Source of the DNA: Candidatus Limimorpha avicola
GTDB lineage: Bacteria > Bacteroidota > Bacteroidia > Bacteroidales > F082
Assembly (NCBI GenBank): GCA_020907925.1
Contig: DZDN01000058.1
Coordinates: forward strand, 1,574-65,573
DNA: 64,000 nucleotides
Direction of reading: 5' to 3'
Shown here: piece after piece, positions 34,437 through 53,165 of the stretch
How the letters are laid out: every line of letters begins with the position of its first letter
Position numbering within the stretch: position 1 is the first letter of the stretch
The notes under the pieces: generated by a model
Databases searched by the model: none
Told to the model about the DNA's origin: nothing
Seen by the model: the letters and a program-made list of their open reading frames with translations, nothing else
Position numbers and translations under genes: made by a program

Positions 34437-34823
34437 TTAAACTTTATTCAAATATTTCACTATTGAGACAATATTTTCATTGACAACAGAAAAAGCATAA
34501 TCATAAACTACAAAATAATCAACCCCCTTCTTTGTTTTATACAACCCGGTAAAATATTCATAATCAAAACCAAGTGAATCCATTTCCTGTTTAGGCACAA
34601 GCACTCTTCCACAACCGCAAAGAGAATGCAATATCTTTCGATTGTGTTGCAATACAGAATTAATCCTTTTTATATACGAAGTTCTTTGTGTATTTATTTT
34701 ATAATAGTAATTATTTCGACAATAGTCATCACAAAATTTTTTATCGGAACGACCTTTCAATTCTGCTCCGCAATAATGACATATTTTATTAAATTTGGCA
34801 ATAACATTATTCATAAGCATCAA
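34437..34823 (-). CDS. Hypothetical Cys-rich (zinc-ribbon-like) protein
   Basis: CHYCG...(12)...CDDYC motif at the N-terminus. It overlaps the upstream DUF4159 gene by 4 nt. Confidence 0.5.
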   Translation of the reverse strand: MMLMNNVIAKFNKICHYCGAELKGRSDKKFCDDYCRNNYYYKINTQRTSYIKRINSVLQHNRKILHSLCGCGRVLVPKQEMDSLGFDYEYFTGLYKTKKGVDYFVVYDYAFSVVNENIVSIVKYLNKV

Positions 34824-36217: not shown

Positions 36218-38029
36218 TTACATTCTTTCCGGCATCGATATGCCCAACAATTCTCCTACATTACGCAACAATTTTGCCGTCATATCCGCCAACTGCAAAC
36301 GGAAAAGCCTGCGGTCTTCATTTTCTTCCTTCAAAATACTGCACTCCTGATAAAACTGATTGAACTCCTTACACAAATCATAAATATAATTTGCTATCAT
36401 GGCAGGACTTCTATTTATTGCAGCCTGGTCAAGTAACATCGGCCAATTATAAATACTCACCAATAAAGGTTTTTCTTTTGGCATTATATCCGACACTGTC
36501 ACATCATCACTTGGCGTGATACCCAATTCAGAAGCCTTTCTTAACACCGAACATATACGTGCATGAGTATATTGAATAAATGAACCTGTATTACCATTAA
36601 AATCTATTGACTCTTTAGGGTCGAACAACATGGTCTTTTTAGGATCAACCTTAAGAATAAAATATTTCAATGCTCCCAGACCTATAGTATTATACAAAGC
36701 ATCAGCCTCCTGTGCAGACAAGTCACGAGCCTTGCCGAGTTCCTCAGAAACAGACCTTGCTGTTGCCACCATTTCATCCATAAGATCATCAGCATCGACG
36801 ACTGTCCCTTCACGTGATTTCATCTTGCCACTTGGCAACTCCACCATACCATAAGATAAATGTTCTATGTTATTACCCCATTCATAGCCTAAACGAACAA
36901 GTACTTTTTTCAGTACATCGAAATGATAATTCTGTTCATTACCAACGACATATATCATTTTCTCAGGTTTATATTCGTTATACCTCAACTGAGCCGTTCC
37001 AATATCCTGTGTCATATATACCGAAGTGCCATCTCTACGCAACAACAGTTTTTCATCAAGACCTTCGTCCGTAAGGTCGCACCATACTGATTTATCAGGA
37101 CGTTGATAAAGAACTCCTCTCTCCAAACCTTCCATCACAGTACTTTTTCCCAACAAATATGTCTGCGATTCATAATACACTTTGTCAAATGAAACGCCGA
37201 GACGTTTATATGTGACATCGAAACCATCATAAACCCATTGATTCATCATCTCCCAGAGATGACGCACCTCAGGATCACCAGCCTCCCATTGACGTAACAT
37301 CTCGCGTGTCTCTCTCATCAATGAAGATGCTTCCTCTGCAGCAATCTTAGCTTTTTCTTTTGCATCATCATCAAGTTGATCAAAGTTTTCAGGAAGTAAA
37401 CTCTTGACTTCAGCTTTGAAATTCTTATCAAACAACACATAGAAATCACCTATCAAATGGTCGCCTTTTTTTCCTGTTGAAGTCGGTGTGCAACCATTAC
37501 CCCATTTTTTCCAAGCAATCATACTTTTACAAATATGAATACCTCTATCATTTACAAGATTCACACGTACAACATTCTTTCCGGAAGCTTTCAAAATCTC
37601 AGAAACACTCCAACCAAGAAGATTGTTACGAATATGTCCTAAATGCAAAGGCTTATTGGTATTGGGAGAAGAATACTCAACAACTACAGGAGCACCTTCA
37701 ATCTTTTTAAATCCGAACTTCTCAACCCTATGATTATCTCGGAAGAATGACAACCAATAATTATCAGAAATAACCAAATTAAGAAAACCTTTTATGACAT
37801 TGTATTTTGCAATAAATGCACTTTCTCTAATCATCTCTTTCCCTATTTCATTTGCAAGAATTTCCGGAGATTTACCTGCAATCTTCACAAACGGGAATAC
37901 CACTATTGTGAGGTCTCCTTCAAATTCAGGACGTGTCTTTTGAAAAACCACCTGCTGAACCGGAGGTTCCTGACCATAAAGTTTCTTAAAAGAATCGATA
38001 AAAATCTGTTTTAAAACTTCTTCCAACAT
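36218..38029 (-). CDS. argS: Arginine--tRNA ligase
   Basis: Class I HIGH variant (PNTNKPLHLGHIRN), an MSKR-like KMKSREG motif, and a DALR anticodon-binding C-terminus. Confidence 0.92.
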   Translation of the reverse strand: MLEEVLKQIFIDSFKKLYGQEPPVQQVVFQKTRPEFEGDLTIVVFPFVKIAGKSPEILANEIGKEMIRESAFIAKYNVIKGFLNLVISDNYWLSFFRDNHRVEKFGFKKIEGAPVVVEYSSPNTNKPLHLGHIRNNLLGWSVSEILKASGKNVVRVNLVNDRGIHICKSMIAWKKWGNGCTPTSTGKKGDHLIGDFYVLFDKNFKAEVKSLLPENFDQLDDDAKEKAKIAAEEASSLMRETREMLRQWEAGDPEVRHLWEMMNQWVYDGFDVTYKRLGVSFDKVYYESQTYLLGKSTVMEGLERGVLYQRPDKSVWCDLTDEGLDEKLLLRRDGTSVYMTQDIGTAQLRYNEYKPEKMIYVVGNEQNYHFDVLKKVLVRLGYEWGNNIEHLSYGMVELPSGKMKSREGTVVDADDLMDEMVATARSVSEELGKARDLSAQEADALYNTIGLGALKYFILKVDPKKTMLFDPKESIDFNGNTGSFIQYTHARICSVLRKASELGITPSDDVTVSDIMPKEKPLLVSIYNWPMLLDQAAINRSPAMIANYIYDLCKEFNQFYQECSILKEENEDRRLFRLQLADMTAKLLRNVGELLGISMPERM

Positions 38030-38051
38030 AATTATTTCTGTTTATTCGCTG

Positions 38052-38059
38052 CAAAGTTA
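38052..38059 (-). promoter_or_regulatory. Bacteroidota -7 promoter box TAACTTTG (minus strand) for argS
   Basis: CAAAGTTA on the plus strand, 23 nt upstream of the argS ATG and only 32 nt after the RHS stop codon. Confidence 0.5.
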
Positions 38060-38090
38060 ACAAAAAACGAACGTATAATCTTTAATTTTA

Positions 38091-41000
38091 TCAAAGTTTA
38101 AACGGTTTTGTCTGTTTATTTGAAAACATAGACATAAATAACGAGAAATTCATATCTCCTGTCCAAGTTCTACTGAAGCTGATAGGCACCACCTCAATAA
38201 TTTGTGCCGGAAGCATAGCGAACATGACACTTTTAACATATATCTTACCATTATCAATTACCACTTCATCAATACATCTAATTATTTCACAATTTCTATC
38301 TTCCGGCGAAAGTGTGTTTCTCAGTTCATTTTCAAAATGTGCCACTTGTTGGTCTGCCCAATCGGATGCATAGGCATGCTGAGTTAGAACATCATAAAAT
38401 ATCGGTATCAATATGCTGAAATCAAAACCGACATAACCCGGTCTAAAATTTTGAAAAACATATTTCCCGGCAAAAAGATTATCAAAGAAACTTGATGCTG
38501 TTTGTACTATAACATGTTTTGCAACATGTGAATTAGCAAGAAAATCGCACACTCTCAAACCCTCTTCATTATCTTTAGGAGCATGAATATATGCACATAA
38601 TGTTGATTTAGACAAACCTTTTCCGACACCACCCCAAAATGACTTTGTAACTTCAGACCAATTTACAGAATTATAATCTCCACTCCCATCATAATTTGCT
38701 ATGAATGAATTGGTTCCTGCCACAAGACCTCCTATTGCAGCATTACTCATGACTTGTACAATCCACGATGCAGAGATAACACCCTGTGAAACACAGCCTT
38801 GAATAAAGCCGGCTCCAAACGCCAACAATCCTTCCCCAAAAGTATCAATATTAGGTATATTTTTAATAATATTAAAAACACCACCACACAAACCTTGTAC
38901 GAGCCACTCTATCCACTCTCCTGTCGGGTCATTATATGACAACGGATTATTCAAACAATAACTGTACCTGTTATAATTCTGCGACATGTCTGGCAATTGG
39001 ACATTATTGTCAGGACTTAACATCATCGACATTAACGGATCATACATCCTTCCATTCATATTTATAAGTCCGAAATCCTTCAAATGCTCATGCCCTGTAA
39101 ATCCTCTGTCACACAACATATCACCATTATATGTGCCAGACCACGTATCTGCATTCCTTAAATTCCCCCACGCATCAAAACTCAATTCCTGTATTTTATT
39201 ACCATTTTCATCAGTAATAATATTCCATGAACCCAAATGGTCTTTATAAATAAAATAAAAACCTCTATCTCCTTCCGGTGTCAACACTTCTACAGCAAAC
39301 ACCCCAGCAGGACTTTGAATATATGTATATACAGTTGTCTTATTATTCTCAGTAACATATTCACAACCTCCGACATAGACCTTCTCAAGGGACTTGCCAT
39401 CTACCACTGATGTCACTTTACAGCGCTCATAATCAAAACCGTATTGAAAAGCAATCGTATTGTCTCCACTAATTATTTTATCCACTTTATCAAACATAGT
39501 ATAAGTAATTGTATGATTTATCCCTTCAATATCAACTTCTCCAAGTTTAGCCTTTACAATTGCATTTGGCTTTTCTGTATCATACTCTGCTTCAAAATAT
39601 ATATCTTTGCCATCCACAGATTTGCTATTGATATTTCCCAAAACATCATATTGCATTATTCCTGTAGTCATTCCATTGCGCCGTATTTTCGTAAGTCTGT
39701 CATATTTATCATATTCAAATTCCTCAGAAACCTTTGTTCCGGTATATTTACTACGCCCGGTAAGATTGCCGTTGCCATCGTATGAATATACAAGATTCTG
39801 TAATTCAAAATCACCTTTTTTTGTTAATATAGACAACAATCTGTTATTCAAATCATCATAAGAGAACTCTGATACACAACCATTGGCAGTCTCAAATTCC
39901 ACAATATTACCAAATGAATCGACTTTGTTGGCTGTCCAAATCACTTTCTCTCTATCGACATCAATTATCGACCTACAATACCCTGAATTTGAATATACAT
40001 TTTTTATTGTCAATCCACTTGGAAATGTCTCTTCCAATTTCCGTCCAACTTCATCATAAGTAAATGATGTAGAATACATTTCACCATCAATCATCTCATC
40101 AACCGATGTAACACGCAACAATTCATCATAATTATATGTAATCACCTGATTATCACCACATATTATCTTTTTTAACAAACCAATTTCACCATCATTATCT
40201 TCATAAATCCATTCAGTAACAATTTCCTTACCGGTATGTACGTCCTTATCAACACGTCTGACAGTTTGTCCTACAGCATTATAACTATATGTTGTAACAT
40301 TATTTTCCGGATAAATCATTTTAACAAGATTGTCAGCAGCATCATATTCATAGCACAAAACACCACCATTAGGGTCAGACAACCTCTTTTTATTGCCACG
40401 ATTATCATATTCCACATTGATGACTGTATTTTCATTACCAAGAATTTTAGCAGATTTAATATTTCCACTACTATAATAGTCATACACCACAGACGCTCCA
40501 CCATTATCTTCAGTCTCAATTAACCATCCCATAGGATTTGTCTTTTTAATCTTTTTTCTGACAGTACCATCATTCAAATAAGTTGTCAACACAACATTAT
40601 AGCCATCATATTGATATACAGCACGAGTGCCATCAGGACGACTCTCCTCTGTCAATCTTCCAAAAATATCGTATGTAAACGACACATAATCAACATTATC
40701 ACCTCTATAATATGGCAATGATTTTTTTACAAGATTCCCATTGTCATCATATTTCATGTCAACAAATACAGCATCACCATTAAGGTTAAAACTTACATTT
40801 CTCAACTCTTTACCTGTCTTATGATAAAAAGTCATAGTCTCAGCCTTGCCTGTAGTCTTGTCCCAAATATAATAAGATGCCCCCTCAGGTGCATATTCAT
40901 TACCTTCAGACCACAACTTAACCTTCACATTTCTAATACCGTCAGCCATAATTACATCCTGTCTAACTCCAAATGGATCTTCCAGTCTATTTGTAGTAAA

Positions 41001-44000
41001 ATCATTATAATCTGTCACTGCAGTAAGCATTCCATAATTCTTATCATAACAAGATTGCAGATTACGCCCCATTTCATCGACTGTCAAAGTTGGATATCTA
41101 TATTGATATTCAGGACCATAATCTAATTTTATCACTTTCTCATCTTTAAATGAAGAAGAAGTTTCCACTCTTTGCACGACATGACCGAAATCATCATACT
41201 GAAATGAAATCGAAACGGAAAGAGGATCAGTGATATCGCCATAAACATTAGGTATATAATCTCTCATCATAACTCGATGTGGATTATTGTCATCAGAATA
41301 ATGAAACATTTCAGTATTCCCAAAAACATTTTCCGACTTAAGAGACTGTTTTCTAACAATCATGGCAGGTCTGTTAATAAGCCAATTTGCATAATCAAGG
41401 TTATAATAGTTTTCTACTTTCGTCCAATACATATAATCCATAGGATTATCTCCTACATCTTTATAATCTACCGCCTCTGTAACACTATTCAAAATAATAG
41501 CATTCAAATAAACATTACTATTCAAATCACTGTTATATTCATTAACTGTCTTAACGACTTTATGCAATTTACCACGTTTGTCACAATCAAATATCTTTTC
41601 AGTCTTTCCTACCATCATTGGCATAATTATTTTATCATTGTCGATAAAACTGTATTTTTCATAAAAATAGTTCTCTTCTTTCAACAGGACATTATCATTC
41701 CCGAATAATTGCAACTTATCCAACAACATGATAAAATTTTCAGACATTGTTGACAATTCATTATATGTTATTTGTTTTCTATTTAAAACACCATTTACAT
41801 ATTCTTCTTTCATCACAGATTCAAAACCCATAAATCCATGACCATCCAAATGTATCTTGGCATTATTATAATAATATTTTGAAATGACGGGATTACCATT
41901 GATTGAGAATAATGTATCCGATTTCAAAGCTCGAATAGGGATTCCAATGCACATTACACCATTCTCCAAAGAAGGAGCATTTAAACTGTAAAATGATTGA
42001 GAATCATTTTTCGGCATAAGATAATCATATTCAAATCCCATACAATTTCCCATGCCGTCTGTTATTCTTTCGACATCATACATAGAAGTATGAGGATTCA
42101 ATGCAACAATTTTGGGAGTCTCAGCAGAATAAGGGGTTCTTCTAACACTTGACAATACTGAAATATTCTCTTGTCCCAAAAAGTTACCAAGATACACATA
42201 CTGATGTGCATAATTTATCGACATATAATATCTTTTATAATTTGCGAATGTAAACAGTATCTCATCTTTCAATCCTATTTTAAATCCCACTTCAAGATAA
42301 TAATTACCTCCGGAATTTTTAAATATGCCAATATCAGTTGTTCCATCACCATCAAAATCCGCAGTTCTTATCGTTACAGTAGGTTTTGCCAAATCTTTCA
42401 ACGAACACAAATATCTGTCAATAGGCTGAGGTGTCACACCTGCAAATATACTCGAATAGTCACAACGATATTTGTCCGTATAACCATTCCCTTTGGAAAA
42501 TCTTATAGTCCAATAAGTCTTTGGACTATAGACAAGAAGGTCTATATTACCATCTCCATTAAAATCTCCGGGAAAGACAAAATCATCAAGGGAGATATCT
42601 ATCCCACATTCTTTTATCAAAACATAATAACCATTATACAAAATCAATGAATAAAATCCCGATTCTTTTCCTCTTGTAGCCAAAAGTTCAGAAGCACCAT
42701 CTCCATTATAGTCCATTGGTTGAAAACGCTGTGCCTCATTAAACATATCATCAAAAAACACAACATTACTGAAACACGTCTCATCTTTATAATATAAATA
42801 TTTAACGTTAGTATTTGGAGACAAACTCCCATAATTCCCACTTATCAATAACAAAGAAGCTTTTCTTTCTCCCAAAAAATCTCCCGGATAAATATTAAAA
42901 ATATTATTTTCGGAATAATTATATACAAAATCAAATGTTTTCCCGTTATTGATATACATATTCATTGTTGTCAAAGTACCATTATCATTATCAACACTGT
43001 ATGAAACAATATCATCCTTGCCATCGCCGTTGAAGTCAACAACATAAATCCATTCCAAATATTTGTCAAAAATCATCGTAGTAAGCGGGAAGTCTTCAAA
43101 TCCTCCTTTCCCGGTATTCAAATATACATCAGCCAAAACATTTCCCGGATAAGTTTCACCCAATTTATAAGGCACCAAAATGACATCAGAAAGACCATCA
43201 CCATTAAAATCCCCAACAAATGGGACCTTGTTGAAAACATTTTTATCCAAAACATACGACTGATGTGCGTTGCCATAATGTTTCGATTTATCGTTCCATG
43301 ATATTCTCGTTGGATTCAGTTTGACGCCATCAACCGTTAATGTAACCTCAACAAGTCTATGATACATAAAATACACATTATCGTAATATTGTGGTTTCAG
43401 ATAATTAAATGAATAATTGTATAACTCACTATTTGACAACATATTCGATACAATAATATTTGTCAACAATCTTTTACTTTGAATAATAGCATCACCACAA
43501 AATGCGAAATCGCAATCCGTCTTTTCCTCATAGACAAATTCCACTTTATAAACAGCATCTTGATTGGTTTTATCATTATAAGTATAATATATACTTTTTA
43601 TGTAAACCTCTCCTGTTTTTTGATTCTCATCATAATGAAATGTCATATAATTACCATCTCTATCAGACACTTTATTAAGCATCCACATTAAAGTCAAATT
43701 ACTGTTATGTGAAGTCTCTATTTTCGAATCAACAGTATTGCCATATTCACATATTGTGCCATCAGCTTTCCATACCTCAAAATAATCAGGACCATTACTA
43801 TCCGGATATGATACTATTTTACTCATCATATCCATTTCAGTTTTATATATCAACTCATTTACCGAGCCTACTCCTTCAGAGACTTGAAACATTCTGTTGC
43901 CGTCAAGGGAATAAACATCATCATTAAAATCAACATCACCTATTTCTCCATCATGATAAATTGTCTTCCTCGCCCTTGTTATTGATGACAATCCTGAAAC

Positions 44001-44429
44001 ATTCCATCCCCAGCCAAGCAAACCATTACCTCCCTGACTATTATAAGAAACAGACAATTGAGGCAAGATATCTCCAATACAAGAAGGCATTTTTAAAGGA
44101 ATACTGTAAACAACACCTCCCATGTCACCTACATCATATACTCCTGACAAACTTCCGACAACACCATTGTCGCCCACCCCAGGGCCTCCGTAATATCCTT
44201 CTTCAGGCAAAAAGACTCCATATCTGTCTATACTAAGTTTCATATCATGACCATCGACAGGTTTATAACAAAACCCCTCTTTCAATGTTATGGACCTACT
44301 TGCCTGACAAACATAACTCACAATATTATTCATCTCCTCATTCAGGACAATATCTGTTTGATGATACATATCTTGAGCATTCATATAGCCTCCAATAAGC
44401 ATAACAAACAACAATAATTCTCTTTTCAT
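38091..44429 (-). CDS. Giant secreted polymorphic-toxin-type protein: signal peptide, SpvB/TcdB-N-like region, FG-GAP/VCBS beta-propeller repeats, TcdB-mid-like region, RHS/YD-repeat shell, RHS core end (DPTGEW), and an unassigned 273-aa C-terminal domain
   Basis: Signal peptide MKRELLLFVMLIGGYMNAQ. SpvB-like IPL..P...G..P.LSVSYNSQGGNGLLGWGW. Five DFNGDG-type FG-GAP motifs at aa 400-720. Many YD repeats (YDDNGNLV, YDIFGRLTEE, YDGNGNLTG and others). Core-end segment IYKDHLGSW..FDAWGN..FTGHEH..MNGRMYDP..NPLSYNDPTGEW. Confidence 0.9.
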   Translation of the reverse strand: MKRELLLFVMLIGGYMNAQDMYHQTDIVLNEEMNNIVSYVCQASRSITLKEGFCYKPVDGHDMKLSIDRYGVFLPEEGYYGGPGVGDNGVVGSLSGVYDVGDMGGVVYSIPLKMPSCIGDILPQLSVSYNSQGGNGLLGWGWNVSGLSSITRARKTIYHDGEIGDVDFNDDVYSLDGNRMFQVSEGVGSVNELIYKTEMDMMSKIVSYPDSNGPDYFEVWKADGTICEYGNTVDSKIETSHNSNLTLMWMLNKVSDRDGNYMTFHYDENQKTGEVYIKSIYYTYNDKTNQDAVYKVEFVYEEKTDCDFAFCGDAIIQSKRLLTNIIVSNMLSNSELYNYSFNYLKPQYYDNVYFMYHRLVEVTLTVDGVKLNPTRISWNDKSKHYGNAHQSYVLDKNVFNKVPFVGDFNGDGLSDVILVPYKLGETYPGNVLADVYLNTGKGGFEDFPLTTMIFDKYLEWIYVVDFNGDGKDDIVSYSVDNDNGTLTTMNMYINNGKTFDFVYNYSENNIFNIYPGDFLGERKASLLLISGNYGSLSPNTNVKYLYYKDETCFSNVVFFDDMFNEAQRFQPMDYNGDGASELLATRGKESGFYSLILYNGYYVLIKECGIDISLDDFVFPGDFNGDGNIDLLVYSPKTYWTIRFSKGNGYTDKYRCDYSSIFAGVTPQPIDRYLCSLKDLAKPTVTIRTADFDGDGTTDIGIFKNSGGNYYLEVGFKIGLKDEILFTFANYKRYYMSINYAHQYVYLGNFLGQENISVLSSVRRTPYSAETPKIVALNPHTSMYDVERITDGMGNCMGFEYDYLMPKNDSQSFYSLNAPSLENGVMCIGIPIRALKSDTLFSINGNPVISKYYYNNAKIHLDGHGFMGFESVMKEEYVNGVLNRKQITYNELSTMSENFIMLLDKLQLFGNDNVLLKEENYFYEKYSFIDNDKIIMPMMVGKTEKIFDCDKRGKLHKVVKTVNEYNSDLNSNVYLNAIILNSVTEAVDYKDVGDNPMDYMYWTKVENYYNLDYANWLINRPAMIVRKQSLKSENVFGNTEMFHYSDDNNPHRVMMRDYIPNVYGDITDPLSVSISFQYDDFGHVVQRVETSSSFKDEKVIKLDYGPEYQYRYPTLTVDEMGRNLQSCYDKNYGMLTAVTDYNDFTTNRLEDPFGVRQDVIMADGIRNVKVKLWSEGNEYAPEGASYYIWDKTTGKAETMTFYHKTGKELRNVSFNLNGDAVFVDMKYDDNGNLVKKSLPYYRGDNVDYVSFTYDIFGRLTEESRPDGTRAVYQYDGYNVVLTTYLNDGTVRKKIKKTNPMGWLIETEDNGGASVVYDYYSSGNIKSAKILGNENTVINVEYDNRGNKKRLSDPNGGVLCYEYDAADNLVKMIYPENNVTTYSYNAVGQTVRRVDKDVHTGKEIVTEWIYEDNDGEIGLLKKIICGDNQVITYNYDELLRVTSVDEMIDGEMYSTSFTYDEVGRKLEETFPSGLTIKNVYSNSGYCRSIIDVDREKVIWTANKVDSFGNIVEFETANGCVSEFSYDDLNNRLLSILTKKGDFELQNLVYSYDGNGNLTGRSKYTGTKVSEEFEYDKYDRLTKIRRNGMTTGIMQYDVLGNINSKSVDGKDIYFEAEYDTEKPNAIVKAKLGEVDIEGINHTITYTMFDKVDKIISGDNTIAFQYGFDYERCKVTSVVDGKSLEKVYVGGCEYVTENNKTTVYTYIQSPAGVFAVEVLTPEGDRGFYFIYKDHLGSWNIITDENGNKIQELSFDAWGNLRNADTWSGTYNGDMLCDRGFTGHEHLKDFGLINMNGRMYDPLMSMMLSPDNNVQLPDMSQNYNRYSYCLNNPLSYNDPTGEWIEWLVQGLCGGVFNIIKNIPNIDTFGEGLLAFGAGFIQGCVSQGVISASWIVQVMSNAAIGGLVAGTNSFIANYDGSGDYNSVNWSEVTKSFWGGVGKGLSKSTLCAYIHAPKDNEEGLRVCDFLANSHVAKHVIVQTASSFFDNLFAGKYVFQNFRPGYVGFDFSILIPIFYDVLTQHAYASDWADQQVAHFENELRNTLSPEDRNCEIIRCIDEVVIDNGKIYVKSVMFAMLPAQIIEVVPISFSRTWTGDMNFSLFMSMFSNKQTKPFKL

Positions 44430-44441
44430 AACAATAACATT

Positions 44442-44897
44442 TTACAGTTTCAACACTATCTTAGTCTGAACATAACCTTCAAACTCCACTTTCATCAAAT
44501 ATACCCCTCGTGGGAAACACGAAATATCCAATGTATGTCTTTCACATACAATCTGACAATCAACAAGTTTCACTCCATTCATATTATAAAAGCTTAAAGT
44601 TGCTTTATTATCACTGTCTATCGATTTCAACTGCACGGTAAGACATCCGCTGGTTGGATTAGGAAACACTCTCATTTCCTCATCCAGAACACATTCATCC
44701 AATACATAATCACTTGTAATAGTATTTTTCATCTTGTCAAACTTTTTTTCATCATTGCAATCATCACCGAGCCACCGTTCTATTCTATTACCATTATTAT
44801 CATAACTAAATGACAAACAATACTGTGCAAATAAATCACCTGTTTGGATCAAGTATAATACTATCACAAGAAACACAAAACAATATTTCCGTTTCAT
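44442..44897 (-). CDS. Small secreted protein: signal peptide, a single YD-type repeat (SFSYDNNGNRIERW) and a T9SS C-terminal sorting domain
   Basis: Por_Secre_tail pattern VFPNPTSGCLTVQL...GVYLMKVEFEGYVQTKIVLKL. It sits 12 nt upstream of the RHS gene. Confidence 0.75.
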   Translation of the reverse strand: MKRKYCFVFLVIVLYLIQTGDLFAQYCLSFSYDNNGNRIERWLGDDCNDEKKFDKMKNTITSDYVLDECVLDEEMRVFPNPTSGCLTVQLKSIDSDNKATLSFYNMNGVKLVDCQIVCERHTLDISCFPRGVYLMKVEFEGYVQTKIVLKL

Positions 44898-44918
44898 AAT
44901 ATTATCCTTTTAAAATTA

Positions 44919-45899
44919 CTATTTTAGAGTATTGATAATATCCTGTTGCTTCTTAATTTGTTTTTGTAGTTCTATGGTATAGAGTGTAAGTTCCTCGATT
45001 TTCTTAAGCAACAATCCCTGAAATTTGACGATTTCGTAACCTTCAGTCAACACTTCAAATTCTGATGGAATATCCGGAAGATGTCTGTTTTTCTTGATAT
45101 AACGCTCCAACTCCTTCAACGAGATAAGATTGTAATCATCTTCAAAAACATCATCGTGCCATTCTTCTACCTCTTTGACATATACCTCATTAGTAAGAAT
45201 ACCTCCTGATACCGCCAATGAATAGTTATATGAATCTTCAAATACATTATTAGTATTAATGCCAATTTTACCAAAAAGTGCAACTCTTTCTGCCTCTATG
45301 CTCAGGTTGTCATCCACAGCTTTTATTCCCATTCCGTCTTTAGATACCGATATCACATGATTATCATCATACATTTGGAGGAACACCTTGTTGGTCATTT
45401 TATTTTTAGTTTCAAGAATAACTCCGGCATCTTCACTATAATCCGATTTTATATGTAATTTAGCTTGCGGTTCAATAACATCCCCTATTCCCACTTTGCC
45501 TGTCGATTCATTTCCAAGCGACGGACCGACGAACAAAGTCGGATGTTTACTGTTAAAGCTTATTATCAATGAATTTGGTTTATTATTAATAAGAGCCTTA
45601 TTATCCAAGTCACCAAGACCTGAACCTATAACCACCGCATTGGTAGCTTCCGCGCGTACAAAAGTCCCCAATGCCATAGAAGTACCACCTTTTGCCTTTG
45701 CCGAATTTCCTACAGCCAACGAATAGACTCCAGTCGTACTATTATTAATACCCAATGTTGCCGAAAATGTTCCATTAGGTTCATTTTGATATTGTCCGGA
45801 AGTTGGACCACAAATATCGCACCCATTAGTGTCCTGCGCTTTTATCACAGCACACATCATCTGCAGCAGTATAATAACTGCCAATAAAATATGTTTCAT
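44919..45899 (-). CDS. Secreted fibre-like protein: YadA-head/Hep_Hag-like repeats with a C-terminal heptad (coiled-coil) module
   Basis: Signal peptide. S.A.G...A.G repeats (FSATLGINNSTTGVYSLAVGNSAKAKGGTSMALG). C-terminus HLPDIPSEFEV....LLLKKIEELTLYTIELQKQIKK. Confidence 0.6.
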   Translation of the reverse strand: MKHILLAVIILLQMMCAVIKAQDTNGCDICGPTSGQYQNEPNGTFSATLGINNSTTGVYSLAVGNSAKAKGGTSMALGTFVRAEATNAVVIGSGLGDLDNKALINNKPNSLIISFNSKHPTLFVGPSLGNESTGKVGIGDVIEPQAKLHIKSDYSEDAGVILETKNKMTNKVFLQMYDDNHVISVSKDGMGIKAVDDNLSIEAERVALFGKIGINTNNVFEDSYNYSLAVSGGILTNEVYVKEVEEWHDDVFEDDYNLISLKELERYIKKNRHLPDIPSEFEVLTEGYEIVKFQGLLLKKIEELTLYTIELQKQIKKQQDIINTLK

Positions 45900-45930
45900 A
45901 AATTCTGTTTTTAAAGGTTCTAATTTATCA

Positions 45931-47409
45931 TTATTTTTTGATGAATGTACCAGTTAAAATACAATCATCACCATCTATTAATTTGCAACAATATGTGCCA
46001 CTGTTCAGGGGAGAAACGTCAATTGTCAGAATGTTTCCATTAGTTCCAATTGTTTTATCCAAAAACATCCTTCCTGCAATATCATATACCTGGATGCGTG
46101 CATTTCTCATCTCAAAACCTGAAGTTTTTATATTCACAATATCGTTTGCCGGATTAGGAAATATATCCACATCAATATCTTCAACAATATTATCAGAAAC
46201 AGAAACAACAAGTTCAATATCTTCTCTTAACACTTTGAAAATCTGCACTATTGTTGGTTTCTCTCCAGTTACATTGATTGAATGTACAATAACTCCGCCA
46301 TCTTTTGTAGGCTGTGCATTTACCGACAATGCAATATCACAATCATTACCAAATTCTTTTCTTCCTAACAAATTCAAATCTTTATCAATCATAGTAACAG
46401 TAGTAGGAAGATATTCCGGATCATAAAAATTATAAAGACTAAAAACCGCTGATAGTATATATATCGTCGAATCATTAATATAGACATTATTGCAATATTG
46501 AGCCAAATAGTCCGATGTATCAGCTCGCATCAAAGGAAGTCTTTCCGAAACATCTCCTGTAATATTCATTTTCAACACTTCAGTATAGTAATCCGTAATT
46601 GAAGAAGCATCTTTAATCCTTCTTACAGGTATCAAAAATTCCTCCTCATCATACCAATAATCAGTATTTATGCAACAAACCGAATAATCGAACGGCAGCA
46701 CGCTATGTGCAATATACTCCAAATCTTTGTCAAAACGGCTTAATGTAATATGTCCGGCAACATCAAAAGCCTCTCCGATAAGCAAATATTCCTCTGTTCC
46801 CGGTATCTTCTCAAGGTCATGAGGCACTCCACCAGAAGGACGATGACCGGTATGAATAACTTTCTTCAAAACATTCAAATCATCATCTACTTCCATGAAT
46901 ATCAGATCGCCATCTCCTGACCATCTCTCCTCCTGAACTATCATGGCAATATTGTTATCATAAGATTTTGTCATGACCGACCAGTCTCTCCACGAATAAT
47001 AATTCTCATCCAATGGAATAAACTCTTCCTTCACTATCTCAAGTTCAGAATTCATAATAGACAACCATAAATACTCAAAAGCTTCAGTAATATCATCATC
47101 ACTCGCCAATCCGATGACAATAATACTGTCGCCATTCAACTTCATAGATGAATTGAAAAAACTTTTTTTCTTTTCTGTTGTAAACACTTTACGTGTATAA
47201 TTATCATCATTATCAATAAATATCGCTACCGGTCTATAATCATAACCGGAACCACAAAACGTAGTTATTCCAACAAGATAATTACCATTTTCAACCATTG
47301 TACCACCACTAAAATACTCATGTTTCTCAGATGGATAACTTATTTCCCATTGTTGAGCATTCACGACTATCGTCGTTAAAAACATCATTAAGACAGTAAT
47401 TTTTTTCAT
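45931..47409 (-). CDS. Secreted protein of unknown function with a T9SS C-terminal sorting domain
   Basis: Signal peptide (..VVNAQQ). C-terminal IFPNPANDIVNIK....GTYCCKLIDGD....GTFIKK matches the Por_Secre_tail pattern. Confidence 0.7.
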   Translation of the reverse strand: MKKITVLMMFLTTIVVNAQQWEISYPSEKHEYFSGGTMVENGNYLVGITTFCGSGYDYRPVAIFIDNDDNYTRKVFTTEKKKSFFNSSMKLNGDSIIVIGLASDDDITEAFEYLWLSIMNSELEIVKEEFIPLDENYYSWRDWSVMTKSYDNNIAMIVQEERWSGDGDLIFMEVDDDLNVLKKVIHTGHRPSGGVPHDLEKIPGTEEYLLIGEAFDVAGHITLSRFDKDLEYIAHSVLPFDYSVCCINTDYWYDEEEFLIPVRRIKDASSITDYYTEVLKMNITGDVSERLPLMRADTSDYLAQYCNNVYINDSTIYILSAVFSLYNFYDPEYLPTTVTMIDKDLNLLGRKEFGNDCDIALSVNAQPTKDGGVIVHSINVTGEKPTIVQIFKVLREDIELVVSVSDNIVEDIDVDIFPNPANDIVNIKTSGFEMRNARIQVYDIAGRMFLDKTIGTNGNILTIDVSPLNSGTYCCKLIDGDDCILTGTFIKK

Positions 47410-47433
47410 GACAATATTATTTTAAATTAACAA

Positions 47434-48516
47434 TTATTTCTGTAGCAAATCAACTGGTAATCCCAAATCAAGTACCGGAATTGCTATTTTTTCACCATAT
47501 AATATAAAATTCTCATGTCTTCTCAAAGTTCCTCCTGACACTATTGAACTGTTTCCTTGAATATCCACCTCCATAAATTTCGGATTTTGTGGCAATTGCC
47601 CACTATATTTAGGGTCATTGGGTACAAGTTCCATAATAACATCAACTTCATTTTGAAAATAATAATTCAATAAAGAACCGCTTAGATACAAATATTGAAG
47701 ATTGTTAATCCAATAATAAATATAGTATTCACCATTATATTTTACATATTCATTACCCAACAGATGTATCATGGACTGTGAAAAATAAATATTCCGGTAT
47801 CCATCAACAGCAGCCGGAGACCATCCATAATAGTAATTAATCCAATATTCTATCCATTCCGCTGCATCACCCCATTCAGAAGGGTCGTCGCAAGAGCCTC
47901 CGTACTCACCAAAGTACCAGCAATCATCCTCACCAAAAGGTCCGACATAATACACATTAAGATTTCCGGGATCCTCAGGTATAGACCTTCCCGAAGACAC
48001 CAAAGCTATTATCTCCAAACGGTTGTTTTCGACCTCTCCTTTCTCAAAAAACACATTTTTCAACGATTTGTTTTGAACAATTCCATCGTTAGAATAGGCT
48101 GTTCTAACATCATTTATGATTTGATCATATAATAATGCCACATCACTCATCGACACGACATTATTGTTGACAGGTACAGAAAACACCAATTCCTGAGTAA
48201 CAATTTTATCATATAACAAGTCAGGGAAAGTATATGAAGCATTAAACAAAGCCTCAATATTCCACACCACACTGTCGATACTGATAAAATCCTCACTTTT
48301 TGAAGCAAGACCATCGGCAATGGACATTCTGTTTTTAAAATTTTTTATTTTTCCAACAATACTCGAGGCATCAATTTGTTCTGTACTACCAATATTATCA
48401 GAAAGTATACTCTGAATCGGTTCAATATATTTCTTCCTACAGGCATACAATGCCATTGCCAGAACAATAATGCAAAACAACACTTTTAAAATACTTTTAT
48501 AATAACTATGTTTCAT
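47434..48516 (-). CDS. Putative lipoprotein of unknown function
   Basis: Signal peptide with a lipobox-like LYAC. The C-terminal half is rich in aromatic and acidic residues (WYFGEYGGSCDDPSEWGDAAEWIEYWINYYYGW). Confidence 0.6.
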   Translation of the reverse strand: MKHSYYKSILKVLFCIIVLAMALYACRKKYIEPIQSILSDNIGSTEQIDASSIVGKIKNFKNRMSIADGLASKSEDFISIDSVVWNIEALFNASYTFPDLLYDKIVTQELVFSVPVNNNVVSMSDVALLYDQIINDVRTAYSNDGIVQNKSLKNVFFEKGEVENNRLEIIALVSSGRSIPEDPGNLNVYYVGPFGEDDCWYFGEYGGSCDDPSEWGDAAEWIEYWINYYYGWSPAAVDGYRNIYFSQSMIHLLGNEYVKYNGEYYIYYWINNLQYLYLSGSLLNYYFQNEVDVIMELVPNDPKYSGQLPQNPKFMEVDIQGNSSIVSGGTLRRHENFILYGEKIAIPVLDLGLPVDLLQK

Positions 48517-50632: not shown

Positions 50633-52036
50633 TCACCTTAGTTTTATATCTTTCCATTTATCGGTCAATCTCGATGAATAAATAACAGAAGGTGTTTGAG
50701 TTTTTTTAAACTCTGATAATGAGTATGTTTTAACTTTACTCTGAACTTCATAAAACAATCCCCCGAGTGTTAGATTTGAGGGATTGTTTTGTATTTCTTT
50801 CAAAAGGAAATATGTAAAGACACCGTGTTTCTTATCTTCATACTGAAAAGCCGTTTCGTTTCCCTGTGCAGCGAAACAAGCCACCACATTGCCATCAAGC
50901 ACCCTTGTCTTGGATTTTATTCCTGACGTTATATCATCGACTAAAACTGTTCCTTTTCTATTATAACAATTAAAACTCGCATCAACAAACACCACAGCTG
51001 ATTTTACCGGCATGGCACTCAGATTCTCAAAGAAATAATCCACGCTAAAACATGTTTTTATTTTTGAGAAGCGACCTTCTACAGGGACGAAATACGACTT
51101 TTTGTTTCTGTTTGACGATATGCCATGTCCGACATAATATATTATAAATTTGGTCTCCTCTCCATATTGCTTTGCCACGCCAGACATCCATTTTATCATT
51201 ATCTCAAAATCCTTCAATGTGGCATTTTGCACAAATTTAAGGTTTCTTTTCGGGACACACAAAGTTTTTATACAATAATTCTTAAATGTTTCGGCATCAT
51301 TTTTAGCGAACTTAACCTTAGGCTCCTTTCTATAATTTTCATTTGCTATTATCACGACCCAAGTATTCTTATTCACTGAATCCATCACCGGAATATCCTT
51401 GTCTATACTATGGTTTTTCTCATCGACACCGTTACGCACTCTTTCTCCAAAAATATATACAGGAGATAGCATATAAGGTACTCCCATATACATAGAGTCA
51501 ATTATCCCCTTATTAATATATTGAAATCTCGAGCCGTCAGGCAGCATAAAATCCACCTTTGCCAACCCAAGAGTATCTTTATAAATAAAATAATCCGGTT
51601 TCAACACTATATCAGACCATGAAGAGATAAAATAATCAGATTTTACGACAGGCACTTTTACCGACAATCGTCCAAAATAATTTTCAGACATAATCATCTG
51701 TTCATTATTCCTGTCATAACCATCAATATTCAAATCGAGGACATAAGTTCTTGATATTTCTTCCAGATACTTATCAGATGCCTCAGCCTCCAAAAGGACT
51801 ATCATCTCCTGCTTATGAGATTCACTAACTCTGTTTTTATATCTTGCATTAGATTCTCCCGGCTGTTTTCTCTGCCATTCATCAATTGCATTTTCCACAT
51901 AAGCCTTTACGAAAACACTATATCCAGATTCAGGACGTACCATTCTGACGGGTTTAGACGAAGTCAACGACACTATCTGTCCAAACAACATTGAACTCAT
52001 CAATACCAACAATATAGTCAACAAATGTTTTCGCAT
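50633..52036 (-). CDS. Secreted caspase-fold (peptidase C14-like) protein with a ~220-aa N-terminal domain of unknown function; Ser at the catalytic Cys position
   Basis: Signal peptide. The caspase p20-like pattern is VVIIANENY..L.FAKNDAE.F, then YYVGHG (His present), then VVFVDAS (canonical is DAC), then HGVFTYFLL...QTP. Confidence 0.65.
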   Translation of the reverse strand: MRKHLLTILLVLMSSMLFGQIVSLTSSKPVRMVRPESGYSVFVKAYVENAIDEWQRKQPGESNARYKNRVSESHKQEMIVLLEAEASDKYLEEISRTYVLDLNIDGYDRNNEQMIMSENYFGRLSVKVPVVKSDYFISSWSDIVLKPDYFIYKDTLGLAKVDFMLPDGSRFQYINKGIIDSMYMGVPYMLSPVYIFGERVRNGVDEKNHSIDKDIPVMDSVNKNTWVVIIANENYRKEPKVKFAKNDAETFKNYCIKTLCVPKRNLKFVQNATLKDFEIMIKWMSGVAKQYGEETKFIIYYVGHGISSNRNKKSYFVPVEGRFSKIKTCFSVDYFFENLSAMPVKSAVVFVDASFNCYNRKGTVLVDDITSGIKSKTRVLDGNVVACFAAQGNETAFQYEDKKHGVFTYFLLKEIQNNPSNLTLGGLFYEVQSKVKTYSLSEFKKTQTPSVIYSSRLTDKWKDIKLR

Positions 52037-52037
52037 C

Positions 52038-53165
52038 TTACAAAGCCAATCTAAATCCTATGTCAAAACGCCGTGTATTAGGGACAAGACCCTGTCTATA
52101 ATGGATACGGCATTTTTCTTCCCTATCATACCAGCTTCCACCTCTTACCGCAAAAAACGCCCCCTCTTCCTTACCCGTAGGATTGATCTGAGAACCTCCT
52201 TCGTAATCCCCAAAAATATCTCCGCACCATTCAGACACATTACCTGTCATGTCGAACAAACCAAGTTCATTTGACAGTTTCTGAGCGACATGATGCACGC
52301 CATAGTCAATATCATCTTGACCCACATTACAACTATTATACCAATACCATGCCACATCATAAATATCATGGCCACCTGAGAAAAGATATCTGTTAGAATC
52401 CTCACCACCTTTAGCTGCATATTCCCATTCCGCCTCTGTCGGCAATCTAAAATCCTCTCCCGTAACATGTTTCAGCCATGTACAATATGCCACTGCATCA
52501 TTCCAACTAACATGTATCACAGCTCTGTCGTAGTCAGCCTCATTCAAGACATTACCATCCTGGTCACATCTCCAGTTCACACCTTTTTTCAACTCCCAAT
52601 AGCCTCTGCCCCAGACATAGCTGCCGCCATATTTATCCGCATCTGTCTTATAATCGGTAGCATCTACAAACTGTTTAAACATGCGTACTGTAACCTCAGT
52701 CTTACCAATACAAAAATCACTCACCACCACTTCATGTGCAGGCATAGTATTACTCTTAGGAGCGTTATTTTTCTGCTTTTCTCCCATCATAAAAGAGCCG
52801 CCCATCACTTTCATCATCTCTATCAAAGTGCCGTTGACATCTATAGTACGTTTAGCCTCTTTTATTTTCACCTTAAAAACCACAGCGTCAGAATACAACA
52901 TGTCGCGTTCCGCATATACGTGCCACACTGCAGTTTTTTTCCCTGGCATAACATTCTCACCCACATCGCCGCTCACCTGTTTCAACGGCGGTCCAAAAGT
53001 CTTGCCTCCATCTGTAGAGCATTGAATATCAATATCCGACACAGCATCAAGAACATAATATATCTCTATATTATTACCGACAACCTTGAAGTCAGCGTCA
53101 GTAACACTTTGCGTTCTTGCTGTCAGAGTCACTGTCAGGAAGAGGAGGCAAAACAACCTTTTCAT
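52038..53165 (-). CDS. Secreted FGE/SUMF1-fold (FGE-sulfatase domain) protein with an N-terminal beta-sandwich-like domain
   Basis: Signal peptide. HEV.V..F.IGKTEVT, WNDAVAYCTWL, RLPTEAEWEYAAKGG, NVSEWC, RGGSW and GFRL motifs. Confidence 0.8.
   Translation of the reverse strand: MKRLFCLLFLTVTLTARTQSVTDADFKVVGNNIEIYYVLDAVSDIDIQCSTDGGKTFGPPLKQVSGDVGENVMPGKKTAVWHVYAERDMLYSDAVVFKVKIKEAKRTIDVNGTLIEMMKVMGGSFMMGEKQKNNAPKSNTMPAHEVVVSDFCIGKTEVTVRMFKQFVDATDYKTDADKYGGSYVWGRGYWELKKGVNWRCDQDGNVLNEADYDRAVIHVSWNDAVAYCTWLKHVTGEDFRLPTEAEWEYAAKGGEDSNRYLFSGGHDIYDVAWYWYNSCNVGQDDIDYGVHHVAQKLSNELGLFDMTGNVSEWCGDIFGDYEGGSQINPTGKEEGAFFAVRGGSWYDREEKCRIHYRQGLVPNTRRFDIGFRLAL

Follow-up and report, generated by a model that had tools for sequence, protein, structure and literature searches.

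A two-module Rhs tail from Candidatus Limimorpha avicola and its relatives, kept without a linked immunity gene

The reverse strand of a 64-kb stretch of DNA from Candidatus Limimorpha avicola (64,000 nt of contig DZDN01000058.1, hereafter the window) carries an Rhs gene whose product ends in a 273-aa tail behind the cleavage motif DPTGEW. The tail belongs to a small, real protein family that is always placed behind an RHS core, and it is built of an N-terminal module that also precedes unrelated tips and of a C-terminal tip of its own. Our best reading, which we hold tentatively, is that it is an encapsulated, membrane-entering and envelope-acting effector that has become fixed in this lineage and is used without linked immunity. 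An Rhs cocoon with a C-terminal effector is a known kind of system. New are three undescribed families, namely a reusable entry-type module of Bacteroidales Rhs cargos (the N-module), an effector tip and a secreted immunity-like partner, together with an unusual evolutionary state, in which a gene of the polymorphic-toxin type has turned into a stable, immunity-less core gene under purifying selection in many species of an abundant, uncultured rumen and gut lineage. The system bears on how SpvB-type Rhs proteins are exported and delivered in Bacteroidota, and on the use of a toxin without linked immunity.

The Rhs protein and its two-module tail

The Rhs gene has the following features.
38091-44429, reverse strand: Rhs gene, encoding a 2112-aa BC-type Rhs protein with predicted Sec export (signal peptide, SpvB, FG-GAP propeller, TcdB-midN, RHS repeats, Rhs-associated core, 273-aa tail)
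44373-44429, reverse strand: N-terminal signal peptide (MKRELLLFVMLIGGYMNA, then QD...), read from the sequence, with a putative cleavage site
38919-39176, reverse strand: Rhs-associated core (TIGR03696 match), an aspartyl autoprotease plug ending in DPTGEW
38913-38930, reverse strand: DPTGEW cleavage motif (Rhs residues 1834-1839)
38598-38912, reverse strand: N-module, tail residues 1-105, a Gly/Asn-rich, weakly hydrophobic four-helix module common to Bacteroidales Rhs tails with differing tips
38094-38597, reverse strand: C-module, tail residues 106-273, a family-specific tip with conserved xPTD, GNLFAG and a terminal N[YF]SxLxxLFxK
38157-38291, reverse strand: ~45-aa beta-hairpin-like segment (alignment columns 315-365; predicted strands 209-233, low confidence)
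38115-38150, reverse strand: extreme C-terminal motif (NFSLFMSMFSNK), family consensus N/C-Y-S-x-L/F-R-S-L-F-x-K

Pfam analysis of the Rhs protein gave matches to SpvB (E 4e-16), FG-GAP_3 (E 3e-14) and RHS_repeat (E 9e-26), and the Rhs-associated core was matched at residues 1752-1837 (Rhs_assc_core/TIGR03696, E 2e-13). TcdB_midN scored 23.8 bits against a cut-off of 24.8 and is borderline. The SpvB N-terminal domain, FG-GAP propeller, TcdB-mid region and RHS cocoon together form the architecture of a Tc BC component. A hydrophobic leader ending in A or S before Q, equivalent to the signal peptide of the window protein, was present in 24/24 Rhs orthologues. The two catalytic Asp positions of the core (SPD... 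and DPxGE) and the cleavage motif were likewise kept in all 24, including one Pro-to-Ser variant (L017 reads DSTGEL, not DPxGEW). Because the autoprotease residues and the motif are retained throughout, we infer that the cargo is probably still released from the shell in the window lineage. No match to type IX secretion system (T9SS) sorting domains (Por_Secre_tail, TIGR04183, TIGR04131) was found on the Rhs protein or its tail; the T9SS C-terminal domain (CTD) sits on the neighbouring 151-aa and 492-aa proteins. The core of the window protein (38931-39070) and of its orthologues reads YDPxxSMMxSPD, where canonical Rhs cores, including those of the distant relatives P0006 and P0008, read YDPxxGRFxSPDP.

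An earlier note on this DNA, made from the letters alone, had counted 273 aa after DPTGEW and could assign them to no toxin family. Both statements hold. The tail is exactly 273 aa long (38094-38912, reverse strand), and it gave no match in Pfam, NCBIfam, PHROGs or PADLOC. A single-sequence phmmer search of PDB sequences was empty and the family profile gave noise only (E > 0.7), none of the 28 aligned members of the tail family matched Pfam, and Foldseek with the tail model returned nothing from PDB and BFVD at E ≤ 0.001. An exhaustive phmmer search of 1.84 billion representative sequences gave ten matches, eight of which are true relatives, each placed immediately behind the DPxGxx motif at the end of an RHS core. 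Another 22 carriers came from a pattern scan that covered one genome for each species; all of them are metagenome-assembled genomes (MAGs) of uncultured rumen or gut Bacteroidales, and one is named as a Candidatus Limimorpha. The similarity among relatives extends over residues ~1-200 and the extreme C-terminal motif. A word-indexed, single-sequence search of 5.8 billion proteins with the tail found no match; it missed the window's own protein as well as P0001-P0007, which are present in the 50%-representative library, and family sizes counted in this way are underestimates.

The hydrophobic, Gly/Ala-rich first ~75 aa and the soluble-looking remainder described in the earlier note are seen in the composition: residues 1-75 contain 16% Gly, 9% Ala and five charged residues and have a grand average of hydropathicity (GRAVY) of +0.79, vs. 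-0.05 for the rest. Of the GxxxG-type spacings that it pointed out, one (G35-G39) is invariant across the family, but their number is no higher than in composition-matched shuffles (3 observed vs. 1.7 expected, P 0.22; P = 0.22-0.41 over GxxxG and small-xxx-small spacings). The maximum 19-residue Kyte-Doolittle mean of the tail is 1.42, under the usual transmembrane threshold of 1.6. Across the family, Gly and Asn account for almost all invariant or near-invariant positions, joined by E27, F32 and P112, and the alignment contains no conserved constellation of His, Asp, Ser, Cys or Lys. The absence of catalytic-type residues argues weakly against a conventional enzyme. Gly and Asn both favour the association of transmembrane helices, and their conservation would fit helix-helix packing in or on a membrane. 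We also considered a tip of the Lipocone superfamily (PMC12419801) and found no support for it: a Lipocone tip needs a four-helix core with a conserved active site of His (H2), Glu (H3) and Asp (H4), whereas the tail, although modelled with four helices, lacks a conserved His and is invariant at G11, N14, D23 (a loop residue), G35, G39 and N68.

The homology and structure analysis proposed in the earlier note, empty on the database side, gave a usable model for the first part of the tail. The AlphaFold 2 (AF2) model from the single sequence was unusable (pLDDT 42). With a 10-sequence alignment the mean pLDDT rose to 68.5, with confidence in residues 1-105 only, where four helices were predicted (2-21, 25-44, 50-73 and 85-105; pLDDT 75-89). 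These residues make up the N-module. A profile of the N-module built from the window family only scored tails with other tips at 58, 54, 39 and 27 bits, while shuffles reached at most 11 bits (0/2000), and all six invariant residues of the module recur in the other-tip tails. The latter belong to RHS-core cassettes (L032 and several fragments, P0012-P0020) whose tails start with the same ~100-aa module and then diverge; P0012 was also found independently among the 5.8 billion sequences (E 3.7e-5, over just 29% of the query). One alternative tip is a Gly-rich region followed by a 156-aa transmembrane-anchored open reading frame (ORF), and the other is a TNT NAD+ glycohydrolase (PF14021, E 3e-22) followed by a 95-aa ORF without signal peptide. 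Searching with the profile for further carriers gave short fragments only, and the contigs of two of these (L034 and L035) were uninformative.

The anatomy given in the earlier note, in which the hydrophobic Gly-rich N-half was part of this particular toxin, is thus corrected, as the N-half also stands in front of the TNT NADase and another tip. Being shared in front of unrelated tips, the N-module looks like a delivery or entry module and not like the killing activity itself. Its logic is that of the CdiA-CT toxins (reviewed in PMC9086364). CdiA-CT regions consist of an N-terminal cytoplasm-entry domain and a C-terminal toxin domain, a conserved N-terminal module being recombined with differing toxic tips that each have an immunity gene of their own. 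CdiA-CT is carried on a type V secretion system filament instead of an Rhs cocoon, no sequence relationship between the two was detected, and entry is the putative function of the module here. The PT-TG and pre-toxin modules (PF14449; Zhang et al. 2012, cited in PMC12419801) are also helical and are located between a trafficking or processing region and variable tips; distant members of the N-module family carry a conserved QTGNG motif. The N-module, however, directly follows the RHS cleavage site, and neither the 28 family members nor P0012 matched PT-TG at E ≤ 1, nor did the two other-tip tails of L032 at E ≤ 0.1. Membership in PT-TG is not supported.

The C-module profile matches its own family only, and its AF2 model is poor (pLDDT 30-70). 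The module is under purifying selection (dN/dS, the ratio of nonsynonymous to synonymous substitution rates, 0.06-0.28). Its ~45-aa hairpin-like segment is present in the window, L003, L036 and the immunity-linked relatives, and it is absent from the main short-tail clade, which comprises 20 orthologues with tails of 227-231 aa, also without immunity genes. The C-terminal peptide motif could have been a by-product of the argS promoter; this was rejected, and the motif is regarded as a protein-level feature, because it is also present in relatives in which an immunity gene, and not argS, follows.

The window lineage and the immunity-like partner of other lineages

The syntenic set comprises 27 loci (the window, L003, L006, L007, L009-L030 and L036), and gene order was judged where the sequenced flanks reach. 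The shared order is pyrBI, a lipoprotein gene (p360), the genes for a 492-aa T9SS-CTD protein, a 326-aa tail-fibre-like protein and a ~141-151 aa T9SS-CTD protein, Rhs, argS, rsmE, a DUF4159 gene and a 128-aa gene. The features next to the Rhs gene in the window are listed below.
38030-38090, reverse strand: Rhs-argS intergenic region, 61 nt, no ORF (TGA stop of Rhs at 38091-38093, ATG of argS at 38027-38029)
38052-38059, reverse strand: argS -7 box TAACTTTG, which fits the Bacteroidota consensus TAnnTTTG
36218-38029, reverse strand: argS (Pfam tRNA-synt_1d E 4e-43, DALR_1 E 3e-31), 77-82% identical to its orthologues
44442-48516, reverse strand: four upstream genes with gaps of 12-31 nt, encoding the p360 lipoprotein, the 492-aa T9SS-CTD protein, the 326-aa tail-fibre-like protein and a 151-aa protein with signal peptide, YD-like hairpin and T9SS type A CTD

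The earlier note had stated that the 61 nt behind the Rhs stop codon, with the -7 box of argS in them, leave no room for an immunity gene. This is borne out and extends to the ~27 syntenic orthologues. All 27 loci have 46-61 nt separating the Rhs stop from the argS ATG (46-60 nt in 24/24 orthologous loci, 49 nt in L036), a TAnnTTTG box lies 31-37 nt from the argS start in 25/25 orthologous loci, and no syntenic locus has room for an immunity gene between the two genes.

Averaged over 276 pairs, ArgS was 90% identical, the shell 57% and the tail 47%. The identity of the tail follows that of the shell (Spearman 0.74, same 276 pairs), and in the closest pairs the two values are 0.93 vs. 0.92 and 0.90 vs. 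0.88 (tail vs. shell). The Nei-Gojobori dN/dS ratios were 0.05-0.19 for the tail and 0.06-0.135 for the shell, and they were lowest in the N-half of the tail (0.03-0.11). From its co-divergence with the shell and the low dN/dS, the tail is neither swapped, nor decaying, nor under diversifying selection, which is the opposite of the classical polymorphic Rhs pattern. RHS repeats and a core with DPxGxx, as expected of a polymorphic toxin, are present; the tips are not polymorphic, since a single tail family occupies the 27 syntenic loci, and an immunity gene directly downstream is absent from the window lineage, a candidate for one being found only in the distant relatives L001, L004/5, L008 and L031. 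We concluded that the window-lineage gene no longer behaves as a polymorphic toxin gene and is a vertically inherited core-locus gene under purifying selection without linked immunity.

In L001, L004/L005, L008 and L031, the tail is followed after 16-27 nt by an ORF of 171-192 aa with a signal peptide. Homology among these ORFs is clear (E 1e-10 to 5e-12), and they have no Pfam match; the secreted product is a candidate periplasmic immunity protein. The distant members P0006, P0008 and P0011 are orphan cassettes consisting of an RHS core plus tail, each with such an ORF behind it, and a metagenome scan showed that a P0008-type tail ends a full FG-GAP/TcdB-midN/RHS protein in L031. Downstream, L031 carries further orphan toxin/immunity cassettes, a hallmark of the classical polymorphic-toxin locus. 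The location of the partner tracks the tip: the 95-aa partner of TNT has no signal peptide, the 156-aa partner of the Gly-rich tip is transmembrane-anchored and the partner of the window-type tip is secreted. These locations match the site of action expected for each tip, which is the cytosol in the case of TNT and the membrane in that of the Gly-rich tip, while for the window-type tip it is secreted.

The earlier note had proposed looking for further copies of the domain and for orphan immunity-like genes. Neither a second tail nor a homologue of the immunity candidates was found within the 64-kb window; a second copy of the RHS core was likewise absent there. The four upstream operon proteins and the product of the 128-aa gene were considered as disguised immunity proteins and ruled out, as hhalign of the immunity family against them gave probabilities of at most 0.3%. 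A separate observation concerns L031:5323-6900, where a Gly-rich fragment is followed by a 180-aa ORF with a HEFVH metallopeptidase-like motif and a 266-aa signal-peptide ORF; neither ORF has a Pfam match, and the two may be another undescribed toxin/immunity pair.

Proposed action and alternative explanations

In the reading that we prefer, the Rhs protein would be exported by Sec and reach the cell surface with help from the co-encoded T9SS-sorted proteins. The 273-aa cargo would be held in the SpvB/beta-propeller/RHS cocoon and be freed by the aspartyl autoprotease between DPTGEW and the following I. The N-module would then insert into the target cytoplasmic membrane, or carry the tip to or through it, by analogy with the CdiA-CT entry domains, and in another bacterium the C-module tip would act on the envelope or the periplasmic face. 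Such an action, non-enzymatic or by binding, is suggested by the absence of conserved catalytic-type residues and by the signal peptide on the partner in other lineages. Cleavage, membrane entry, site of action, toxicity and target are thus the putative parts of this reading, set on the observed architecture, family, modularity, synteny, selection and presence or absence of the partner.

Three circumstances may account for the missing linked immunity: a non-kin target, an unlinked immunity gene or domestication. The earlier note had proposed a membrane toxin aimed at non-self cells or immunity encoded elsewhere, and what has been added is that the lack of a linked gene is conserved among the ~27 syntenic orthologues and that the tail family has a secreted immunity-like partner in other lineages; neither proposal is singled out by this. 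Immunity-less architectures that otherwise resemble polymorphic toxins are typical of interspecific conflict (Burroughs and Aravind, PMC12419801).

Several points weigh against an envelope-acting effector with a separate entry module. The toxicity of the tail is deduced from its context. With its poor model, and without a structural neighbour in the Foldseek searches, the C-module may still have a novel enzymatic fold. An immunity role of the 171-192 aa ORF is suggested by where it lies and by its co-occurrence in four contigs, and since the pairs in L004 and L031 are identical, there are three independent tail/partner pairs. A tblastn search with three immunity candidates in 64 kb of the window genome and 16 kb per orthologue found only the candidates' own loci. 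The TNT cassette (L032:6210-6240) has a single in-frame TGA where its homologues P0011 and P0018 have Trp (TGG), and it may be a decaying silent orphan or contain a sequencing error. In the window clade, finally, the maximum 19-residue Kyte-Doolittle mean of the N-module is 1.0-1.4 vs. 1.6-2.1 in other-tip tails, and because of this lower hydrophobicity the membrane behaviour of the module may differ between the two.

The second explanation regards the whole tail as a pore-forming, depolarising toxin of the Tse5-CT or glycine-zipper kind, whose N-half would oligomerise in the target inner membrane via Gly/Asn packing while the C-half only assists. We consider it unlikely, though it survives better than those that follow. 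The hydrophobic N-half with its few charged residues, the invariant Gly and Asn residues including one GxxxG, and the lack of conserved catalytic-type residues would all suit a pore former. So would the best-geometry Foldseek matches of the tail model, two actinophage holins (probability 0.95, TMt 0.41, E 0.27), and sub-threshold holin matches in Pfam for two relatives; every one of the holin matches is non-significant, and the structural ones are a lead only. The glycine-zipper pore formers (Tse5-CT, Tse4/Ssp6, EsxX, CdzC/D) are characterised by repeated GxxxG in transmembrane-grade helices. The comparison with the tail is mixed: one of its GxxxG is invariant, the GxxxG count is no higher than chance (3 vs. 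1.7), and its hydrophobicity stays under the transmembrane threshold (1.42 vs. 1.6). The purifying selection on the C-module also counts against this explanation. Tse5 has an adjacent membrane immunity protein, and the partner that confers immunity to pore formers of the Tse5 type (Tsi5) is a small membrane protein; the immunity candidate found here is unlike it, being soluble and secreted. A pure pore former is ranked second because the N-module also serves the NADase tip: the same module precedes a cytoplasm-acting NADase and another tip, which fits a delivery module.

Tse5 of Pseudomonas aeruginosa (PA2684; PMC10684867) provides the precedent of a pore-forming Rhs cargo, and it has in common with the window protein an RHS shell, a flexible cargo and an aspartyl autoprotease at DPxG, and probably also a hydrophobic, Gly-rich, non-enzymatic cargo. 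Tse5, however, is a PAAR/VgrG-linked effector of the type VI secretion system with a ~16-kDa cargo, whereas the protein studied here is of the SpvB/propeller BC type, with predicted Sec export, and is encoded beside T9SS-CTD genes. The window tail is a 30-kDa, bipartite cargo without sequence similarity to Tse5-CT and without an adjacent immunity gene.

Two further explanations are both improbable, to about the same degree. According to one, the cargo targets eukaryotes (rumen ciliates, fungi or host cells) in the manner of a Tc toxin and needs no immunity gene. The scaffold is of the TcB-TcC fusion type: like the BC sub-complex of the Tc (ABC) toxins, it combines SpvB, FG-GAP propeller, TcdB-mid, RHS cocoon, aspartyl protease and a ~30-kDa cargo, the size of which resembles that of the TcC hypervariable regions, and both systems are without immunity genes. 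None of the 27 loci has an adjacent immunity gene, the cargo is non-polymorphic and has become fixed, and every carrier is a rumen or gut MAG. However, the large window ORFs encode DnaE, a tricorn-like protease, FtsK and RpoB/C, the flanks examined in 25 orthologous loci contain just the four-gene set plus housekeeping genes, and a TcA translocator was found in neither. Basic cargo is favoured in Tc translocation, and the tail is acidic (pI 5.2; orthologues 4.3-7.7). The Sec signal peptide and the operon with T9SS-sorted proteins also distinguish the system from TcB-TcC, and relatives of the same tail occur in classical antibacterial loci with signal-peptide immunity candidates.

According to the other, the Rhs protein is domesticated and non-toxic, with shell and tail having a structural, adhesive or signalling role on the surface like animal teneurins, and the tail being kept for folding, plugging or anchoring. 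Vertical inheritance as a core-locus gene between housekeeping genes in 27 loci, equal purifying selection on shell and tail, the lack of an immunity gene and of conserved catalytic residues, and an operon with surface-type T9SS and tail-fibre-like proteins are what one would expect in that case. That 24/24 orthologues keep the autoprotease residues and the cleavage motif, one of them with Ser in place of Pro, nonetheless argues for cargo release, and the N-module keeps all the residues that are invariant in toxin-linked relatives. Shell and tail also evolve much faster than their neighbours (57% and 47% vs. 90% identity), as conflict proteins do.

The third proposal of the earlier note, that the C-terminal ~100 aa are an in-cis inhibitory, immunity-like module replacing a separate immunity protein, is very improbable: the missing downstream ORF and a prediction of the last ~65 aa as a separate beta-rich element would agree with it, but the same region, terminal motif included, is conserved in relatives with an immunity candidate behind the tail, ~45 aa of it do not occur in the 20 short-tailed orthologues, which make up most of the immunity-less ones, and it has no similarity to the 171-192 aa immunity candidates.

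Neighbouring genes and a possible link to the T9SS

The ~141-151 aa protein encoded 12 nt upstream of Rhs (44442-44897, reverse strand; orthologues in 25 loci) has a signal peptide, a strictly conserved C-L-x-F-x-Y-D-x-x-G-N-R-x-x-R-(x)n-C that resembles one YD-repeat hairpin between two Cys, and behind this a short linker of acidic character and a T9SS type A CTD. A second example from an unrelated lineage adjoins an Rhs orphan cassette (L008:4396-4854). The YD assignment was made by eye; the RHS_repeat hidden Markov model gave E 0.13 for the L008 protein and no match in the orthologues. The protein could serve as an adaptor, docking on the RHS shell and linking it with the T9SS.

In Apibacter, Rhs genes of the SpvB/TcdB type adjoin genes with a T9SS type A CTD, and an association with the T9SS was proposed for them (Steele and Moran 2021, PMC8125069). 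They share with the present system the SpvB and TcdB N-terminal architecture and the adjacency to Por_Secre_tail genes, and the T9SS association is equally hypothetical in both. In that paper the Apibacter proteins are regarded as belonging to variable rhs toxin repertoires, whereas one orthologue with one tail family is found here at one fixed chromosomal site, without an immunity gene. A more far-reaching idea, to which we give little credence, is that a whole family-level lineage has fixed one Rhs cocoon with its cargo as an immunity-free core device, exported via a signal-peptide/YD-hairpin/T9SS adaptor docking on the shell, the cargo having ceased to be a toxin for kin discrimination and being a broad interspecies or anti-protist weapon or having a domesticated surface function. 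If true, the toxin-to-teneurin transition would have a parallel among prokaryotes, and Rhs cocoons would for the first time be linked mechanistically to the T9SS.

The 326-aa secreted protein (44919-45899, reverse strand) has a weak match to YadA-head repeats, and its conservation extends to all syntenic loci (51-59% identity). In its C-terminal segment (…HLPDIPSEFEVLTEGYEI…coiled coil) it is similar to the end of phage tail fibres that acts as an intramolecular chaperone. On the other side, argS is followed in the window by rsmE, the DUF4159 gene, the 128-aa gene and a PNPOx-like gene. The 128-aa protein (34437-34823, reverse strand) has a zinc-ribbon-like N-terminus (CxxC...CxxxC) and no Pfam match; it is conserved at 43-57% identity behind the DUF4159 gene in 24 syntenic loci and is unrelated to the immunity candidates. 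Farther from the Rhs gene, at 50633-53165 (reverse strand), a Peptidase_C14 caspase-domain protein (467 aa) is encoded next to an FGE-sulfatase protein (375 aa), with 1 nt between the two ORFs; this is a recurrent, poorly understood pair.

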